Source of the DNA: an uncultured delta proteobacterium
GTDB lineage: Bacteria; Desulfobacterota; Binatia; Binatales; Binataceae
Length of the DNA: 41,615 bases
Assembly (NCBI GenBank): GCA_963794325.1
Contig: CAWCDG010000001.1
Span: forward strand, 1-41,615
Direction of reading: 5' to 3'
Shown: positions 8,593-25,700 of the stretch, piece after piece
Layout of the letters: the number at the start of each line of letters is the position of its first letter
How positions within the stretch are numbered: position 1 is the first letter of the stretch
The notes under the pieces: model-generated
Told to the model about the DNA's origin: nothing
What the model saw: the letters and a program-made list of their open reading frames with translations, nothing else
Database searches by the model: none
Position numbers and translations under genes: made by a program

Positions 8593-9536
8593 GTCGTATT
8601 CAGCTGCGACCCGGTGAGTTTGACTCGTCGTTTATAGAGCGGTGGCAACAGCAACGTAATTGCGTCTCTTACTATCTCGACGGAGCCGGGAAGATGGCCC
8701 GCGTATTCGCCATCCACCTGCATGTAGACGCGAGTATCCCGGACCGCAGAGACGTGGAGCTGACGAGCGCGCAGGATGCGCACCCCTTTCATGCCTTGCA
8801 GTCGGTTCCTGACGACGCCGACGAAATACCGCAGGTAGCGCACCGAATTTCGCCCCTCGAACAGCACCACCTCGAACTGGTCATCGAACAGCGAAGTACC
8901 GCGCGCGATCTCCAGATCGCCGCCATAGTTCCGCACCTTGCTCACGAGTGCGAACGAGCAGCGGTATTCGCGTTCATCAATTTTAACCGAGAACTCTTCC
9001 AGGCGGCGGCTCATGAGGCTGAAGGCAGCTATCCAGTAGGCGACCTTACCGAGATTGGTCTTCAGCTGCGCGCTGAGGTTGTAGATCACGCGGGCGTCGA
9101 GGCCGATGCCCGCCATCAACAGGAAATGCCGCCGCGTCGGGCCGCCGTTGTTGAAATCGAGGCGGCCCACCGAAATCCGTTCCGCTGTGTATGTGAGCAG
9201 ATCGCGGGCCGCGGTTTCCAGGTTGGAACTCATACCGGTTTCCGTGGCCAGCACGTTGGCGGTACCTCCAGGCAGGATTCCGAGAGGCACCGCGGAGTGC
9301 ACCATTCCTTCGGCGACTTCGTTAATAGTGCCGTCTCCGCCCGCCGCTACGATCAAACCAACCCCATCGGCGGCCCAATCGCGCGCCAAGGCGACCGCCG
9401 CACCCGGACCGGAAGTGGGAACCAGAGTGGCTTCGTAGCCTCCGTCTGTGAGAATACGCCGGGCGCGTTCAAGCCGGTCAGAGCCTCCCCTCTTCAGCTT
9501 CCCTGCATGGGGATTGTAGATGATGACGCACCTCAC
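8589..9536 (-). CDS. Diacylglycerol/lipid kinase family protein (YegS/BmrU type)
   Basis: Motifs IIYNPHAG, AAGGDGTINEV, PLGILPGGTANVLA, NYGG and QVDGE. Confidence 0.92.
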   Translation of the reverse strand: MRCVIIYNPHAGKLKRGGSDRLERARRILTDGGYEATLVPTSGPGAAVALARDWAADGVGLIVAAGGDGTINEVAEGMVHSAVPLGILPGGTANVLATETGMSSNLETAARDLLTYTAERISVGRLDFNNGGPTRRHFLLMAGIGLDARVIYNLSAQLKTNLGKVAYWIAAFSLMSRRLEEFSVKIDEREYRCSFALVSKVRNYGGDLEIARGTSLFDDQFEVVLFEGRNSVRYLRYFVGVVRNRLQGMKGVRILRARQLHVSAVRDTRVYMQVDGEYAGHLPGSVEIVRDAITLLLPPLYKRRVKLTGSQLNTT

Positions 9537-9597
9537 TCGATGGTCATCCTGACGAAGCGATCAACGCGAGCGGCGGTCATTTGTGGATGGCAACGCT

Positions 9598-10389
9598 TCA
9601 CCGCCCGCTGAAATTCGGATCGCGCTTGGCCATGAACGCCTCCAGGCCTTCCTTGAAATCGCCGGACCGGAACAGCACCAATAGTTGCATCAACACATGA
9701 TGCGTATGCGATTCGAAATCCTCGCTGAGGCCGTGGCGGAACAGCCGCTTCATCGCGCGAATCGCCAGCGGCGCGTTCGCCGCGATCTTCGACGCCCATC
9801 GCGTCGCCTCCGCCATCAATTCTTCATGCGGCACAACTTTGTTCGCCAGACCCAGCTCGACCGCCCGCGCGGGCGCGATGTCGTCGGCGATGAATCCGAT
9901 TTCGCACGCGCGCGCCCATCCCACCAGCCGCGGCAAATACCAGGTGCCGCCGCTTTCGGGCACTATGCCGCGCTTGGCGAACGCGGGCACCAGCTTGGCG
10001 CGATCGCTGATCAGGCGAAGGTCGCATCCGAGCGCGAGATCGAAGCCGTAGCCCGCCGCCGCGCCGTTGATCGCGCAGATAACGGGCAGGTCGATTCGAT
10101 GCAGCGTCACGGTCGGCAGCTCGCGCGTGCTGACATGCGACGCAGTTGGCGCCGCGAGTCCCGCTCCGATGCCACGTCCGGCGGCAGTGTCCTTGAGGTC
10201 GAGACCGCTGCAAAAGCCGCGCCCCTCGCCAGTCAGGATAATCGCGCGGACCTTCGGGTCGCTGTCGAAATCCTTCAGCGCCTCATTCAGACCTTCGAGC
10301 ATCTCGACGCTGATCGCATTCATCCGATCGGGCCGGTTGAGCTTCAAAATTCCCAGGTGATCGGTTTTTTCGACGAGTAGATCGGGCAT
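9598..10389 (-). CDS. Enoyl-CoA hydratase/isomerase family protein
   Basis: Motifs LNRPDRMNA, GFCSGLDL, AINGAAAGYG, RGIVPESGG and LPRLVG; GGAGG RBS before ATG 10389. Confidence 0.93.
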   Translation of the reverse strand: MPDLLVEKTDHLGILKLNRPDRMNAISVEMLEGLNEALKDFDSDPKVRAIILTGEGRGFCSGLDLKDTAAGRGIGAGLAAPTASHVSTRELPTVTLHRIDLPVICAINGAAAGYGFDLALGCDLRLISDRAKLVPAFAKRGIVPESGGTWYLPRLVGWARACEIGFIADDIAPARAVELGLANKVVPHEELMAEATRWASKIAANAPLAIRAMKRLFRHGLSEDFESHTHHVLMQLLVLFRSGDFKEGLEAFMAKRDPNFSGR

Positions 10390-19924: not shown

Positions 19925-20995
19925 TTGTCAGTCAAAATCGAATCGCCCACCGGTGATGAAGCGCTCACCGAATTCGTTCTCTTTCAGCATCGGGTTTACG
20001 AATACCGCAGCGCGCGATGGGCCGCGATGGTGGCCGTGCAACTCCCGATCCTGATGGGCGAAGGGCCGTTCGCCGCCGGCCGCAAGATCCGGCCGTTTAC
20101 CGCGCGCGTCGACGGCAACATCGTCGCGCGCGCCGTCGCGATAATCGACGGCCACTATCAACATCACTGGAACGATCCGCTTGGGCATATCGTGATGTTC
20201 GAGGCGATGCCTAATACGGGCGACGCCGTGAATCCGATGATCGACGCCGCTTCGGAATGGATGAAAACCAACGGCGCGAGCGCCGCGCGCGCCGGCTATG
20301 GATTGCTCGAGTTTCCTTTCGTGATCGACGATTACGAAACTCTGCCGCCCGACATCGCGCGGCAGAATCCGGGGTACTACCACGCGCTGCTGAAAGATGC
20401 GGGATTCGAAACCGAGCGCGGATGGGTCGATTATAAGATTGAGGTAACCCCGGAGCTGATCGCTCGCTACGAAAGCGCACTCGAAGCGAGTCGTCGCGCG
20501 GGTTTTCAAATCGTCGCGCTGAAGGACTTGCCAGCCGCGCGCCGCATCCGCGATTTCGAGCATACCTGGAACATTGCATTCGCAAATCATTGGGGCGCGA
20601 CGCCCTTCACCACTGAGGAACTTTCGTTCCTGTTCGATTTCTTCGCTATGTCCGGCGCGCTCGACACGTCGGTGCTCGCGTATCACGACGGTCAGCCGGT
20701 CGGCGCCCTGATGGTCACACCGCCCAATGCCGACGGCGCAATTCTCAAGCCCGGCCGAAAGCTGGCGGACAACGAGAAACTGAACTTTCTAGGCATCGGC
20801 GTGCTCCAGGAAGCGCGCGGACGCGGCGTCAACCTCGCAATGGCGGCGTATTCATATCTGCACCTGATCCGCCATGGCTCGAAATTCCTCAGCTATACAC
20901 TGGTGCTCGATGACAACTGGCCATCGCGCCGCACCGCAGAAAAACTCGGCGCCAAGGTTTGCGCGAACTACGTCACCTATCGGCGCGACTTCTGA
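19925..20995 (+). CDS. GNAT-like N-acetyltransferase (YghO-like)
   Basis: Motifs ARAVAIID, GHIVMFEA, NPGYYHALL, AFANHWG, GIGVLQEARGRGVN and YTLVLDDNWPSRRTAEKLG; TTG start is uncertain. Confidence 0.7.
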   Translation: MSVKIESPTGDEALTEFVLFQHRVYEYRSARWAAMVAVQLPILMGEGPFAAGRKIRPFTARVDGNIVARAVAIIDGHYQHHWNDPLGHIVMFEAMPNTGDAVNPMIDAASEWMKTNGASAARAGYGLLEFPFVIDDYETLPPDIARQNPGYYHALLKDAGFETERGWVDYKIEVTPELIARYESALEASRRAGFQIVALKDLPAARRIRDFEHTWNIAFANHWGATPFTTEELSFLFDFFAMSGALDTSVLAYHDGQPVGALMVTPPNADGAILKPGRKLADNEKLNFLGIGVLQEARGRGVNLAMAAYSYLHLIRHGSKFLSYTLVLDDNWPSRRTAEKLGAKVCANYVTYRRDF

Positions 20996-21183
20996 ACTTT
21001 GTTCTGCTTCCAGAGCTACTAACAGGCTCAAACAATTTGTAGGCCAGAAGAACCTTCTGGCGTTAAGCGGGGAACAGTGATTAATTCGCCAACGTCAACT
21101 CAGTCTCGCGGCGGCTGACGACTCGTCACTCTTACACTCAGACAATCTCAGCGGAAGACAAAGGACGTGGGGGTAAAACCGAA

Positions 21184-21777
21184 GTGCCAGGTAAACGAAA
21201 AAAATCCACTAAGTCGATCTCTCGAAAAGAGAAGCCGGCGACGCGCGCCAGGAAAAAGCATAGAAGCACAGTGTCTCACCGTGCTTACGAAGCTAAGATT
21301 CAAGCCGCGGTGAACGGTATGTCGTCGGACGTTCAGTCGATCCTGGGAAAGCTGGACGAGAACGATGCAAACGCGGCTCCCACCGAAGGAATTTCAAAGA
21401 GGATCAATGCGCTGATCGGCGAGACCACCAACGGAAAGCCGGTACCAGCGGATCACGAACACAGAATAGAAAGAATTTTGTATGCGGTAGCCGGGATTGA
21501 CCATCAATACAATATCGGTGGATCCACGTCTGGGACCCCGGTCCATCCACCATCAACCAGTGACTCGCATGAGACAAAGGTACTGAAACTCTTCACGACC
21601 ATTAATAAAATTAGCCGGGATGTTTTCTCGATACTCGAATCTGCTACGACGCTGCCGGTTCCACCGACGCCAACAGCGGATAACACTAACGACATTGTTG
21701 CTATGGCACTCGACACTCAGATGGTGGTCCATAAGATCTGCGTTCATATCGATCAAATTCATTCGGCTAGTAAGTGA
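21184..21777 (+). CDS. Hypothetical helical-repeat protein, copy 1, with a basic N-terminal tail
   Basis: About half identical by hand alignment to 22235-22762 (YEAKI, ILYAVA, QY.IGG, LFTTIN, IVAMA.DT); the start context matches that of copy 2. Confidence 0.8.
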   Translation: MPGKRKKSTKSISRKEKPATRARKKHRSTVSHRAYEAKIQAAVNGMSSDVQSILGKLDENDANAAPTEGISKRINALIGETTNGKPVPADHEHRIERILYAVAGIDHQYNIGGSTSGTPVHPPSTSDSHETKVLKLFTTINKISRDVFSILESATTLPVPPTPTADNTNDIVAMALDTQMVVHKICVHIDQIHSASK

Positions 21778-21802
21778 GTTGAGTCCTCGCTGATGTAACC
21801 GC

Positions 21803-22018
21803 ATGCCGGGCAGAGGATCAAATCTTCCCCCAGCGTCGGCGGCAGAACGCGCTGGAGCAGCGACTGAGACATTCGTCGGGCGCGCGCGCGAGTTGGGCGA
21901 GTTGCGTGCCAGCCTCGCCAGCATCGCTGGCGGACGCGGTAAACTCTATTTTCTTATCGGTGAGCCTGGAATCGGCAAGACGCGGCTGGCAGAAGAAATC
22001 GCTGCAGAAGCGGAGCGC
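21803..22018 (+). pseudogene. Truncated 5' fragment (72 codons) of the STAND ATPase gene
   Basis: FVGRARELGELRASL..GEPGIGKTRLAEEIAAEAER matches the N-terminus of 22788-26123, then runs into the duplicated GNAT tail. Confidence 0.88.
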
Positions 22019-22234
22019 TTTGCGCGAACTACGTCACCTATCGCCGCGACTTCTAAGGCAAGACAATTTCTAGGCCACAAGCACGTTATAGCCTTAAGCG
22101 GGGAACAGTGCTTAATTCGCACCGTCAACCAGTCTGGCGGCGGCTTGCGACTCGTCGCTCCTTGTACTCGGACACTTCTGAGCTGACAGCGCCTGTTCGC
22201 GAATCCCGCAATCGACCAAAAAGGTGAACCGAAA

Positions 22235-22762
22235 ATGGCGGCAACGCATCATCCGTACGAGGCCAAGATCTACAATACCGTCGATGGGATTTTGACCGAT
22301 CTCCAGGCGATCCTGATCAAGCTGAAGCAGCACCCGAATGACGGCAACCTGGCGCCCACTAACGGAATGATCGACAGGCTTGGCGCCCTGCTCAAGGAGC
22401 TGAAGAACGGAAGTCCGAATCAGACGACTCATGACACCAACATAGAAGGGATACTGTATGCAGTTGCCCAAATGGGCGATCAGTACATCATCGGGGGAGC
22501 ATCGCCGGCGACGCAGGCCTATCCGCCGCCGACCGGAGGTACGCATGAGCAACGCGTGCTGCGACTGTTCACGACGATCAATTCGATATGCCGCGAAATT
22601 TTCCAAATTCTCGAGCCCGGGGCGTTGCAACCACCGCAGCCCACCGGCGGCGCCGGCAACACGCAGAAGATTGTAGCCATGGCGAAGGACACTCTGAAGG
22701 TCGTCAAAAACATCCGGCAACACATCGTGACCATTCACGGCATAATAGCCTTCAGCAAGTGA
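22235..22762 (+). CDS. Hypothetical helical-repeat protein, copy 2
   Basis: AAGGTG RBS and ATG start; paralogue of 21184-21777; ends 25 nt before the ATPase start. Confidence 0.85.
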   Translation: MAATHHPYEAKIYNTVDGILTDLQAILIKLKQHPNDGNLAPTNGMIDRLGALLKELKNGSPNQTTHDTNIEGILYAVAQMGDQYIIGGASPATQAYPPPTGGTHEQRVLRLFTTINSICREIFQILEPGALQPPQPTGGAGNTQKIVAMAKDTLKVVKNIRQHIVTIHGIIAFSK

Positions 22763-22787
22763 GTTGAGTCGGCATTGACGTAACGAC

Positions 22788-25700
22788 ATGCCGGGCGATC
22801 CAGTAAATCCTCCTCTCGCATCAAGCGCGGAGAGTGCCGTACCAGCGCGTGGAATATTCGTCGGGCGCGAGCGCGAGCTGACCGAGTTGCGCGCCAGTCT
22901 CGCCGGCGTCGCAGGCGGACGCGGTCAACTCTTCTGCCTGGTCGGTGAGCCCGGCATCGGCAAGACCCGCTTGGCCGAAGAAATCGCTACAGATGCGGAG
23001 CGCGCCGGCGCAAAGGTCGCGTGGGGGCGATGCTGGGAAGGAGGCGGCGCGCCGGCCTATTGGCCGTGGACTCAGGCGCTGCGGCATTGCGCGGCGACGA
23101 TCAACCCGCGCGCCACCGACGCGATACTTCCTTCGACCGCTCGGCAGATGTTGGGACTAGCGCCGGAGTTGTCCGGCGAGAGCGCGTCGCCTGAAAGTTG
23201 GTCGCGGGCGACGATGCTCTCCGGGCTGCCTACCAGCGGCGGTTCTCCGTTCGATCCGGCGCGCTTTCAGATGTTCGACTCGCTGGCCGCGTATTTGAAA
23301 CGGCTGGCAAACGATACGCCGCTGGTCCTGGTGCTCGACGATCTTCACGCTGCCGACGCCGACTCATTGCATCTGCTTCGTTTCGTCTCGCGCGACCTGG
23401 TGCAAAGCAGGATTTTGATTCTGGCGACTTATCGCGAAACCGAGGCGCGTCTGTCGGCGGAGCACGCGAATCTTTTGAGCTCGATCGGGCGGGAAGGCCG
23501 CACCATCCATCTGGCCGGACTATCCCAGGAGGAAGTTGCCGCATTCGCGAAAAGCAACGCCGCGCTCGTACCCGATGACCGATTGGTCTCGACGTTGTGC
23601 GACGTTACCGAAGGCAATCCATTTTTTCTCGATGAAACGTTGCGCTTGCTGGGCACCGATCGCAGCGCCGGATTGCAAGACCGAATCGCGGCGGGGCTGG
23701 CGATTCCCGACAGCGTGCGCGAGGCTATCCGAAAAAAGGTTGCGCCGCTCTCGAGCGACGCGCGCGACGCAATCGAGATCGCTTCGGTGATCGGCCGCGA
23801 GTTCGACATCCATCTGCTCTCGCAAGTGTGCGGGCTCACGGTCGGCGAGTGCGTCGCGCGGCTCGCGGAAGCGGTGTCCCATGGAATCATCGGCGACCTT
23901 GGCGATGCGGCCGGTCGCTTCCGATTCACTCACGCGATGATCCCGGAAACCTTGGCTGCGGATATTCCGCGGCTGCGGCTGATGCAGCTTCATCAGCAGA
24001 TCGCGCAGTCACTCGAGCGGCTGCATAGCGACGACCTGTTCGACTATCTGCCTCAGTTGGCCGAGCATTACATTCGTTCATTGCCGGCCGGGCCTCGGGA
24101 CAAGGCAGTCGAGTTTGCCGCGCGCGGCGCGAGACGCGCGATGCGGCAATTGGCGTATGAAGAAGGTGCGCGCCTTTTCCAGATGGCGCTCGACGCGCTC
24201 GCAATCGCGCCGGCCTCGGAACAATCGGCGACCTGCGGCCTGATGATTGAGCTCGGCGAAGCGCTAACCAAGGCGGGCTACGTAGATCGATCGCGCGAAG
24301 TCTTTATGAGCGCGTCCGCGCTCGCGCGCAAATCAAACGACGGCGATGCGTTCGCGAAGACTGCCCTTGGCATCGGAATTCAATCGAGCACCGCCGGAAC
24401 GGTTGACCGAACGCTGGTCGAGTTGCTGGAAGAAGCGCTGCGCTCATCAGGTAGCACCGATAGCGCGCAGAAAGCGATGCTACTCGCGCGACTGGCGGCA
24501 GCACTCTACTGGTCGGATCAGCATGAGCGCTCGATCGAGCTGTCGCAGAGCGCGGTCGATATGGCGCGGCGCCTCGACGACCCGCTCGCGCTGATTTACG
24601 TACTGTGCATGTGGCACTACTCATTGTGGGGACCGGATAACCTGGACGCGCGGCTGAAAACCGCGCAGGAAATGAAGTCCCTGGCCGATCGGATAAAAGA
24701 CCGGGAATGGGCTCTCAGAGCTCTCGAGATGCATCTGGCGGATTTGCTTGAAACCGGCGCGATCGAGGAAGCCGATACCGATCTCAAGAGCTACGAGGAG
24801 CTGTCAGGCAAGACCGGCAGCGGCAATTCGGTGGTCGAGCTTTCCTACGCGATGCGCGCGCTGTTACACGGCGAACTCGCGGAAGGCGAGCGACTGGCCG
24901 AGCACGCGATGGCAGTCGGTCAGCGTCGTCAGGAACCGCGCGCATTGTTGTCATACGCTGCGCAGGTGGGTTTGATTCGCTTCGAGCAGCATCGCATGGG
25001 CGAGCTCGAGCCGATCTTGCGCGCGTATGTCGAGCAGTATCCGGTACTCGATGTGGCGCGGTCGGGACTCGCGATGGCCTATGTCGAGGCCGGCCGCGAA
25101 GCGGAAGCGCGAGTCCAATTCGAGTATCTCGCGCGCGACGATTTCAGCGCATTGCGCCGCGACTGGAATTGGCTCGCGACGATGGCAATTTTGTCGACGC
25201 TATGCGTCTTCATCCGCGACCGCGATCGAGCGGTGCGAATCTACGATTTGATGCTGCCGTATGCTGAGCGGATCGCAATGGTCGGATGGACCGAGGTTTG
25301 TTACGGATCGGTCTCGCGTTACCTGGGCAATCTCGCGGCCCTGCTGCTTCGGTACGACGATGCGCAGCGTCATTACGAATCCGCGATCGCGATGAACGCA
25401 AGAATCGGCGCTCGCGGTTGGCTCGCGCACAGTCAGCACGAATATGCGGCGATGTTGCGCGAACGGGGTGAAGATCGGGATCGCGCTCGAGCCGACGCGC
25501 TCAACGATCAGGCGCTGGCGACCGCCGATTTGCTCGGGATGAGAACCTTGCTGGAAAGTGCGAGGGCACTGAAGACTGCGCACAACGCGAATGCGGCGCC
25601 ATCGACCCGTCGTGCCGGCGACGCGCCGCGCACGCTGGTAACCGTGTTGTTTATCGATATCGTGGGATCGACCGGGCATGCGTCGCGGCTCGGCGACCGC

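Follow-up and report, generated by a model that had tools for sequence, protein, structure and literature searches.

The window analysed here is a stretch of 41,615 nucleotides (nt) of contig CAWCDG010000001.1 (GenBank assembly GCA_963794325.1), which is assigned to an uncultured delta proteobacterium of the Binataceae, a soil bacterium. Between a GNAT acetyltransferase gene and a long gene for an AAA_16/TPR/class III cyclase protein, referred to here as the ATPase, it carries a diverged tandem repeat, and each repeat unit contains a leader and one small open reading frame (ORF A or ORF B). The units are two diverged versions of one locus that have been stacked by recombination. In the reading that we judge probable, a single foreign block of B type was inserted into a resident locus of A type, with a homologous joint on the right and an illegitimate joint on the left. 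Read in this way, the locus would be a natural example of bacteria stacking alternative versions of a gene instead of swapping them. It would also be an unusually clean record of the gain of a second diverged version while the first is kept: both joints can be placed to within 24 nt, related metagenome contigs still have what would be the arrangement before the insertion, and the orphan fragment is young enough to be read.

Structure of the tandem repeat

Unit 1 spans positions 20958-22018 (1061 nt) and unit 2 spans 22019-23003 (985 nt). Each consists of the last 11 codons and the stop codon of the GNAT gene, a leader, one small ORF, and codons 1-72 of the ATPase gene, and unit 2 continues into the intact ATPase gene (Table 1). 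The original prediction, made from the letters of this DNA, had described a tandem duplication at 20958..23003, and both its coordinates and its content agree with what is found. The GNAT tails of the two units encode CANYVTYRRDF followed by a stop codon and are identical at 36 of 38 nt, the only differences being cgG/cgC and tGa/tAa. The ATPase heads, one a fragment and one the start of the intact gene, agree at 164 of 216 nt and at 50 of 72 amino acids (aa), and the 72 codons of the fragment are free of stop codons and indels. ORF A and ORF B are identical at 82 of 166 aa (49%; E=6e-51) and at 59% of nt. The synonymous differences that had been quoted near Walker A and in the GNAT tail (cgg/cgc and tga/taa) are present, and the open head, its 50/72 identity and the roughly half-identical enclosed ORFs were likewise reported correctly. 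In a blastn comparison, 22442-23003 matches unit 1 with E=1.8e-49, a collinear similarity far above chance. The small ORF and the start of the ATPase are separated by 25 nt in either unit. The frame of the head fragment stays open past the junction, giving a 127-aa ORF (21803-22186) in which the orphan GNAT tail is read out of frame.

Table 1. Features of the tandem repeat and its flanks, in positions of the window
Feature	Position	Strand	Evidence
Intact GNAT acetyltransferase gene, 356 aa, left flank	19925..20995	+	Pfam Acetyltransf_1, E=9.6e-06
GNAT tail copy 1 (last 11 codons and TGA), start of unit 1	20958..20995	+	Repeat family D3
Cassette A leader, 188 nt, conserved core at 21063-21089	20996..21183	+	Leaders of L036 and L037 match
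ORF A, 197 aa, GTG start, A-type small helical protein with basic disordered N-terminus	21184..21777	+	
Orphan A-type ATPase head, codons 1-72 including Walker A	21803..22018	+	AAA_16, E=1.4e-10
Putative illegitimate junction 22018/22019, ATPase codon 72 to GNAT codon -12	22010..22027	.	Sequence; 849-nt X2 contig
Orphan GNAT tail copy 2 (11 codons and TAA), start of unit 2 and of the proposed insert	22019..22056	+	
Cassette B leader, conserved core at 22094-22120	22057..22234	+	L039 leader 86.5% identical
ORF B, 175 aa, B-type small helical protein without basic N-terminus	22235..22762	+	
Putatively imported head (codons 1-72) of the intact ATPase	22788..23003	+	56/207 mismatches to L037
Right joint zone, ATPase nt 208-231	22995..23018	.	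Identity to A-type relatives resumes
Intact, putatively chimeric AAA_16/TPR/class III cyclase protein, 1111 aa	22788..26123	+	Pfam; LipJ match

A probable A-type resident locus

Two metagenome contigs, L036 and L037, carry an unbroken GNAT gene, ORF A and an intact ATPase gene without a second unit. Compared with L036 and L037, respectively, the GNAT gene of the source genome (G000) is 96.0% and 94.2% identical at the nucleotide level, with a synonymous divergence (dS) of 0.15 and 0.19. Leader A is 92.6% and 90.1% identical, ORF A 88.3% and 90.0% (dS 0.20 and 0.18), the head fragment 88.9% and 90.3% to the intact heads (dS 0.37 and 0.24), and the ATPase body past codon 72 is 95.0% (240 nt) and 94.6% (810 nt) identical (dS 0.16 and 0.19). 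Because the dS values of the GNAT gene, ORF A, the fragment and the body are comparable, both flanks and unit 1 share one history. With the heads of the same two contigs, the intact G000 head shares only 73.6% and 74.1% of its nucleotides. Its dS to L037 is 0.71, against 0.19 for the flanks, indicating that the inserted DNA differs in lineage from the DNA around it.

The change of lineage can be placed within the intact ATPase gene. Against L037, there are 56 mismatches in the first 207 nt and 44 in the 819 nt that follow (maximum chi-squared breakpoint, chi2 88), and the first mismatch past nt 207 falls at nt 231 against L037 and at nt 261 against L036. The break is 9 nt from the repeat boundary at nt 216. 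In each of nine further ATPase gene pairs, the break in divergence falls at nt 47-72, at the end of a fast-evolving N-terminal stretch. Since none of these pairs breaks at nt 207, the break there is specific to G000 among the genes compared, and is a recombination breakpoint that coincides with the end of the repeat unit.

Proposed insertion of a B-type block

In the proposed sequence of events, the ancestor of G000 would have carried the single-cassette order of GNAT, leader, ORF A and ATPase that is still seen in L036 and L037. A block of ~985 nt (22019 to about 23003), starting at GNAT codon -12, containing leader B and ORF B and ending at about codon 70 of the ATPase, would have come from a related strain with a B-type locus and entered the resident ATPase gene at codon 72/73. 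Its right end would have met the resident gene at the homologous position; the two share 9 nt or more there (GCGGAGCGC), and up to 23 nt can be assigned to neither side. The right joint is in register, with identity to L036 and L037 resuming within ATPase nt 208-231. The left joint links ATPase codon 72 to GNAT codon -12 with zero bases shared and would have been formed illegitimately, without microhomology. No resident DNA would have been lost. With the insertion between codons 72 and 73, the outcome would be a working ATPase with a foreign N-terminus and ORF B directly upstream, while ORF A, together with codons 1-72 of the former ATPase gene, would have been displaced upstream as an orphan module.

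The route that we infer is either homology-facilitated illegitimate recombination (HFIR) or end joining, with a fragment captured at a break. As regards the DNA uptake and RecA-dependent anchoring that HFIR would involve, only homologues of Ku (E=3.4e-49) and ComEC (E=1.2e-53) are seen in the G000 genome. With respect to an integron or another site-specific cassette system, no Pfam match to integrase or transposase families was found among the 31 ORFs of the window that were scanned, and no dedicated attC search was made. The junction lies within coding sequence, and the neighbouring genes are ordinary metabolic ones. Integration of a circle by one homologous crossover, as proposed for Rhs loci and observed in E. 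coli, was not favoured: with an A-type fragment throughout and an intact head of B type as far as nt 207, the crossover would have had only 9 nt in which to occur.

A fairly close relative with a locus of B type is the probable donor. The nearest match to ORF B is that of L039 (89.1% nt and 86.9% aa identity), with a dS of 0.31 and a ratio of nonsynonymous to synonymous divergence (dN/dS) of 0.22; the dS between the GNAT genes of G000 and L039 is higher, at 0.72. Leader B is 86.5% identical to the L039 leader and 74% identical to leader A, with 58 gap columns in the latter alignment. Both differences between the orphan GNAT tail and copy 1 are synonymous, and both match L039.

Alternative explanations

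Several observations weigh against the insertion of a B-type block. The mechanism is not observable from sequence, and the tandem repeat parses both ways, as a B-type resident that had gained unit 1 would give an identical sequence. The resident state is represented by two single-cassette A contigs only, both of them short. The head of unit 2 is only 74-77% identical at the nucleotide level to all other sampled heads and, because none of them exceeds 77%, the donor is unsampled. The orphan tail encodes RRDF, as do the GNAT genes of G000, L036 and L037, and RRTF is encoded in all four sampled contigs that have both a B-type ORF and the GNAT end (L039, L040, G004 and G066). In X1, one of the sequence sets in which the junction was checked, the word depth of the unit-1 contig (20964-22048) is 9.33 and that of the flanking contigs is 14.2 and 13.6. 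A strain lacking unit 1 that lives alongside may be the cause, although contig depths cannot settle this. All four runs that contain the stretch stem from a single study, and the source sample may itself be X1.

The same stretch could have arisen from a B-type resident, with GNAT, ORF B and head B on a G000-like body, that received unit 1 from a relative like L036 and L037 through a homologous left joint in the GNAT gene and an illegitimate right joint. We give this order of events a small but real chance. Under circular permutation of the repeat its product is formally identical, the lower depth of unit 1 in X1 (9.33 against 13.6-14.2) would fit a co-occurring strain with the B unit only, and the orphan tail is possibly a hybrid, its first 25 nt matching G000 and its last two variant sites matching L039. 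However, two events would be needed, an earlier replacement of A by B ending at nt 207-231 and then the stacking, and the end of the donor DNA would have to fall by chance at nt 216, within the same 24-nt zone, although a break is found there in none of the nine other gene pairs. Both flanks are also as near to the A-type contigs as unit 1 is.

An old local tandem duplication, in which the copies diverged in place and L036 and L037 later lost one unit, is strongly disfavoured. A fragment of a flanking gene at each end of a unit is the classic footprint of a tandem duplication and, if the event were young, fragments without stop codons or indels would pose no requirement. Against this reading, the head fragment and the intact head differ by 22.8 synonymous differences over 57.7 sites and 29.2 nonsynonymous differences over 158.3 sites, so that dN/dS is 0.375 (Fisher p=0.002), and 0.27 when only codons 23-72 are considered (p=0.002); divergence of the fragment is thus skewed to synonymous sites. 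The parts of the repeat are unequally diverged, because 2 of 38 sites differ in the GNAT tail and 52 of 216 in the head (Fisher p=0.009); leader and head are 74-76% identical and the ORFs 59% (nt). Deletion of unit 2 would also have to rebuild an intact, uniformly A-type head in both L036 and L037.

The tree of the small ORFs, built from 19 family members, also argues against copies that diverged in place. ORF A groups with L036, L037 and P0003-5 (support 100/100), and ORF B groups with L039 (98/95 for the pair), G066 and G004 (100/100), so that each ORF is closer to the ORFs of other loci than to its neighbour. The dS between ORF A and ORF B is 1.64 and saturated. The two are old paralogous types, and their identity of 49-50% reflects ancient divergence, not rapid change after a duplication. 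A fresh local duplication was likewise rejected, given the 164/216 nt of the heads, the 74% of the leaders with their 58 gap columns, the 49% aa identity of the ORFs and their placement in separate 100/100 clades.

The original prediction of two diverged versions stacked by recombination, and not a fresh copy, is upheld by the dN/dS of the head, the 100/100 clades and the contigs that span the junction. It is further supported by intact genes on L036 and L037 that are 89-90% identical to the fragment. The dN/dS of the fragment, which had been proposed as a check, is 0.375 (p=0.002) and not near 1, and the proposed comparison of related genomes recovered loci with one cassette (L036, L037) and with two (G000, G066, L039). 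The description of the two versions as orthologous alleles holds for the ATPase heads and fails for the ORFs, which belong to old paralogous types, with the B type occurring in tandem with another type in G066 and L039 as well.

The junction was checked in Logan contigs. In X2, a contig of 849 nt covers 21266-22114 and continues 96 nt beyond the junction. In X1, a contig of 1085 nt covers 20964-22048, 30 nt beyond the junction and one short of the rule for bridging. The passage from the GNAT gene into leader A is covered by an X3 contig (20503-21106), and that from head B into the ATPase body by contigs of X2 (22610-23071) and X1 (22025-23600). An assembly chimera at the junction is unlikely because a Logan contig from a second sample crosses it. 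The source genome was assembled from a metagenome (4.45 Mb, 10 contigs, 85% completeness), and soil metagenomes contain both cassette types, yet a merging of A-type and B-type strains by the assembler is very improbable, as the junction links non-homologous sequence, a joint that strain merging does not produce, and is crossed or reached by the independent contigs of X2 and X1.

Selection on the cassettes and the orphan module

Within types, dN/dS is 0.50-0.54 for ORF A and 0.22-0.26 for ORF B, and 0.06-0.12 for the GNAT gene and the ATPase body. Diversifying selection on a variable slot had been suggested in the original prediction. It is not shown by these values, because the within-type ratios (0.22-0.54) stay below 1 and windows above 1 are confined to the C-terminal part of ORF A in comparisons that involve G000. 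The ratios of the ORFs are raised relative to the flanks, yet remain below 1, and the 50% identity between the types reflects their ancient divergence.

Some changes hint at relaxed constraint on the orphan module. In the head fragment, 3 synonymous and 5 nonsynonymous changes could be polarised, against 10:3 in the intact lineages (p=0.16), and the fragment carries Q47K at a position that is invariant in six intact sequences. On the G000 branch of ORF A there are 7 synonymous and 24 nonsynonymous changes, compared with a combined 20:26 on the two remaining branches (12:15 and 8:11 singly; p=0.088). G000 ORF A also carries C144S and W186C, where the other five A-type sequences (alignment A2) agree at both positions; C144 is kept in most of the wider small-ORF family.

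Comparison with known systems

HFIR has reportedly been described in transformable bacteria (by de Vries and Wackernagel in 2002, Prudhomme et al. in 2002, and Meier and Wackernagel in 2003), and the laboratory events are said to have used marker DNA and usually to delete recipient DNA. The G000 locus resembles these events in that one incoming end would be anchored by homology and the other joined illegitimately. It differs in having no deletion and in having its illegitimate joint at the border of homology.

The displaced ORF A and 72-codon head, kept upstream of ORF B and the intact ATPase, resemble the orphan arrays of Rhs, contact-dependent inhibition and type VI secretion systems (T6SS). 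According to a study of Vibrio cholerae, displacement of T6SS effector-immunity modules leaves arrays of orphan immunity genes, and its authors propose HFIR as the route (PMC5361080). As in that study, a module would have been acquired horizontally beside a conserved anchor, with one homologous and one illegitimate end, and the old module kept as an orphan, sometimes together with a remnant of the displaced gene (PMC5361080). In V. cholerae, the constant part lies upstream, with the old modules shifting downstream (PMC5361080). In G000 the direction is mirrored: it is the 3' body of the ATPase that stays constant, and the old module would have moved upstream. Only two modules are stacked. No toxin or immunity domain was found in ORF A or ORF B with Pfam, NCBIfam or PADLOC.

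In the C-terminal displacement of Rhs genes, as described in PMC2935791, conserved core and variable end have separate histories, and existing ends that are displaced by acquired alternatives persist in dissociated form; in both respects the G000 locus is similar. The Rhs case concerns C-terminal tips, for which circular intermediates with homologous recombination have been proposed (PMC2935791). In G000, by contrast, 72 N-terminal codons and the gene upstream are displaced, and a circle would have 9 nt of homology. A circle was also invoked in E. coli conjugation: 56 of 60 Lac- clones were scored as lacZ duplications by PCR, and 14 were sequenced, with duplications of 109-950 bp that were attributed to a single crossover of a circle (PMC3240628). 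The pattern of displacing a module and keeping it as an orphan, known from Rhs and type VI secretion, would here be extended to the N-terminus of a STAND signalling ATPase. A full-text search of a limited literature collection returned no description of such a locus.

The locus in related genomes

Eight loci were compared (L036, L037, L038, L039, L040, G000, G004 and G066). L036 and L037 have GNAT, ORF A and an intact ATPase, and G000 has the tandem of GNAT, ORF A, orphan ATPase head, orphan GNAT tail, ORF B and intact ATPase. In G004, the GNAT gene is followed by an MFS gene, a B-type ORF with a broken frame and an ATPase gene split into 455 and 655 aa, and in L040 by an MFS gene, a B-type ORF and the end of the contig. 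G066 has GNAT, two VWA genes, a B-type ORF, an ORF of a third type (C) and the ATPase. L039 has GNAT, a B-type ORF and the start of a fourth type before the contig ends, and L038 starts at an ORF of a fifth type, followed by the ATPase. The slot is thus variable, with five ORF types and with unrelated MFS or VWA genes inserted after GNAT. Tandems of a B-type ORF with another type occur in G066 and L039 as well, and among the three two-cassette loci only that of G000 has fragments of flanking genes between the cassettes.

In G066 (L034 5931-6011), ~33 nt after the B-type ORF resemble a degenerate ORF-ATPase spacer and ATPase start, which points to an earlier round of stacking whose breakpoint differed. 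The two VWA-domain genes of G066 lie at L034 3202-5217. The MFS_1 transporter gene lies at 8670-9935 on the minus strand of L013 (G004) and at 401-1684 in L040, the Pfam assignment having been made on the G004 copy only. In G004 (L013 4395-8480, minus strand), the B-type ORF changes frame near its start, with the basic N-terminal stretch in the other frame, and the ATPase gene falls into two ORFs (455 and 655 aa); the broken ORF and the split ATPase reflect either decay or an assembly error. G004 also has a carboxylesterase gene 3' of the ATPase, which G000 lacks.

The small-ORF family is rare. The two copies described here are the only ones in the G000 genome, and the family amounts to 15 clusters among 5.8 billion proteins and 18 representatives among 1.84 billion clusters. 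Of 165 genomes of the order, 3 have it, G000 included, and all three belong to one genus. Among the 46 other genomes of the genus, only two have an orthologue of the ATPase (G066, 90%; G004, 78%; next match, 44%), and it always has a member of the small-ORF family upstream. The locus draws attention to a rare, uncharacterised family of small proteins that is always found alongside one ATPase-cyclase orthologue.

The small proteins, the leader and the ATPase

ORF A and ORF B have no match in Pfam, NCBIfam or PADLOC, and ten remote members of their family have no Pfam match. The AlphaFold2 model of ORF A is confident (pLDDT 84.4, pTM 0.77) and shows a disordered basic N-terminus followed by a helical bundle. 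Structural searches gave no informative match: the best Foldseek hit in the PDB has E=0.21, in keeping with a generic helical bundle, the best VIA-align hit in a wide search was a designed helical barrel (Z=10.3, below the meaningful level for helical bundles), and a search of the ESM Atlas for relatives of the small ORFs reached a best score of 0.76, under the useful range. A 225-aa ORF lies antisense to ORF B (22112-22789, minus strand). It is probably spurious, because the plus-strand frame has a dN/dS of 0.22 and conserved homologues.

A 27-nt core (TTAAGCGGGGAACAGTGNTTAATTCGC) occurs in both leaders, at 21063-21089 and 22094-22120, with no third copy in the G000 genome. The conserved block that contains it aligns in all eight leaders, including those of L034, L013, L036, L037 and L040, and lies upstream of every cassette, irrespective of the ORF type. 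The leader has no Rfam match at E up to 1, and the fold of its alignment is without covariation support (term +0.83; 1 of 18 pairs compensatory). For these reasons the block may be a promoter or operator; a sigma-70 scan gave three sites, none within the leaders.

The 25-nt spacing and the strict co-occurrence suggest that the small proteins work with the ATPase. A tentative extension, which we consider rather doubtful, is that the small helical protein and the first ~70 residues of the ATPase-cyclase form a matched specificity pair that moves as one block. A similarly speculative part of the idea is that several old types of such a pair persist side by side in the population. Effector-immunity pairs offer a parallel, as do agr and pherotype loci, in which a hypervariable region lies between conserved flanks. 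If the idea were true, stacking would have given G000 a second partner protein and rewired which of the two couples to the cyclase, and the locus would be a polymorphic sensor module of a new kind, one in which the N-terminus is displaced.

The intact ATPase matches AAA_16 over residues 24-211 (E=1.2e-27) and Guanylate_cyc over residues 950-1094 (E=2.3e-06), with a weak TPR_12 match, and its cyclase region matches LipJ (E=7.3e-53). It combines a P-loop NTPase domain with a class III cyclase domain, the two marks of a STAND NTPase with cyclase output. Some 20 long paralogues (roughly 940-1240 aa) with an AAA_16 N-terminal region are encoded in G000, on contigs C2, C3, C4, C7 and C10; the nearest AAA_16 paralogue is on C10 and is 55% identical over residues 18-137.

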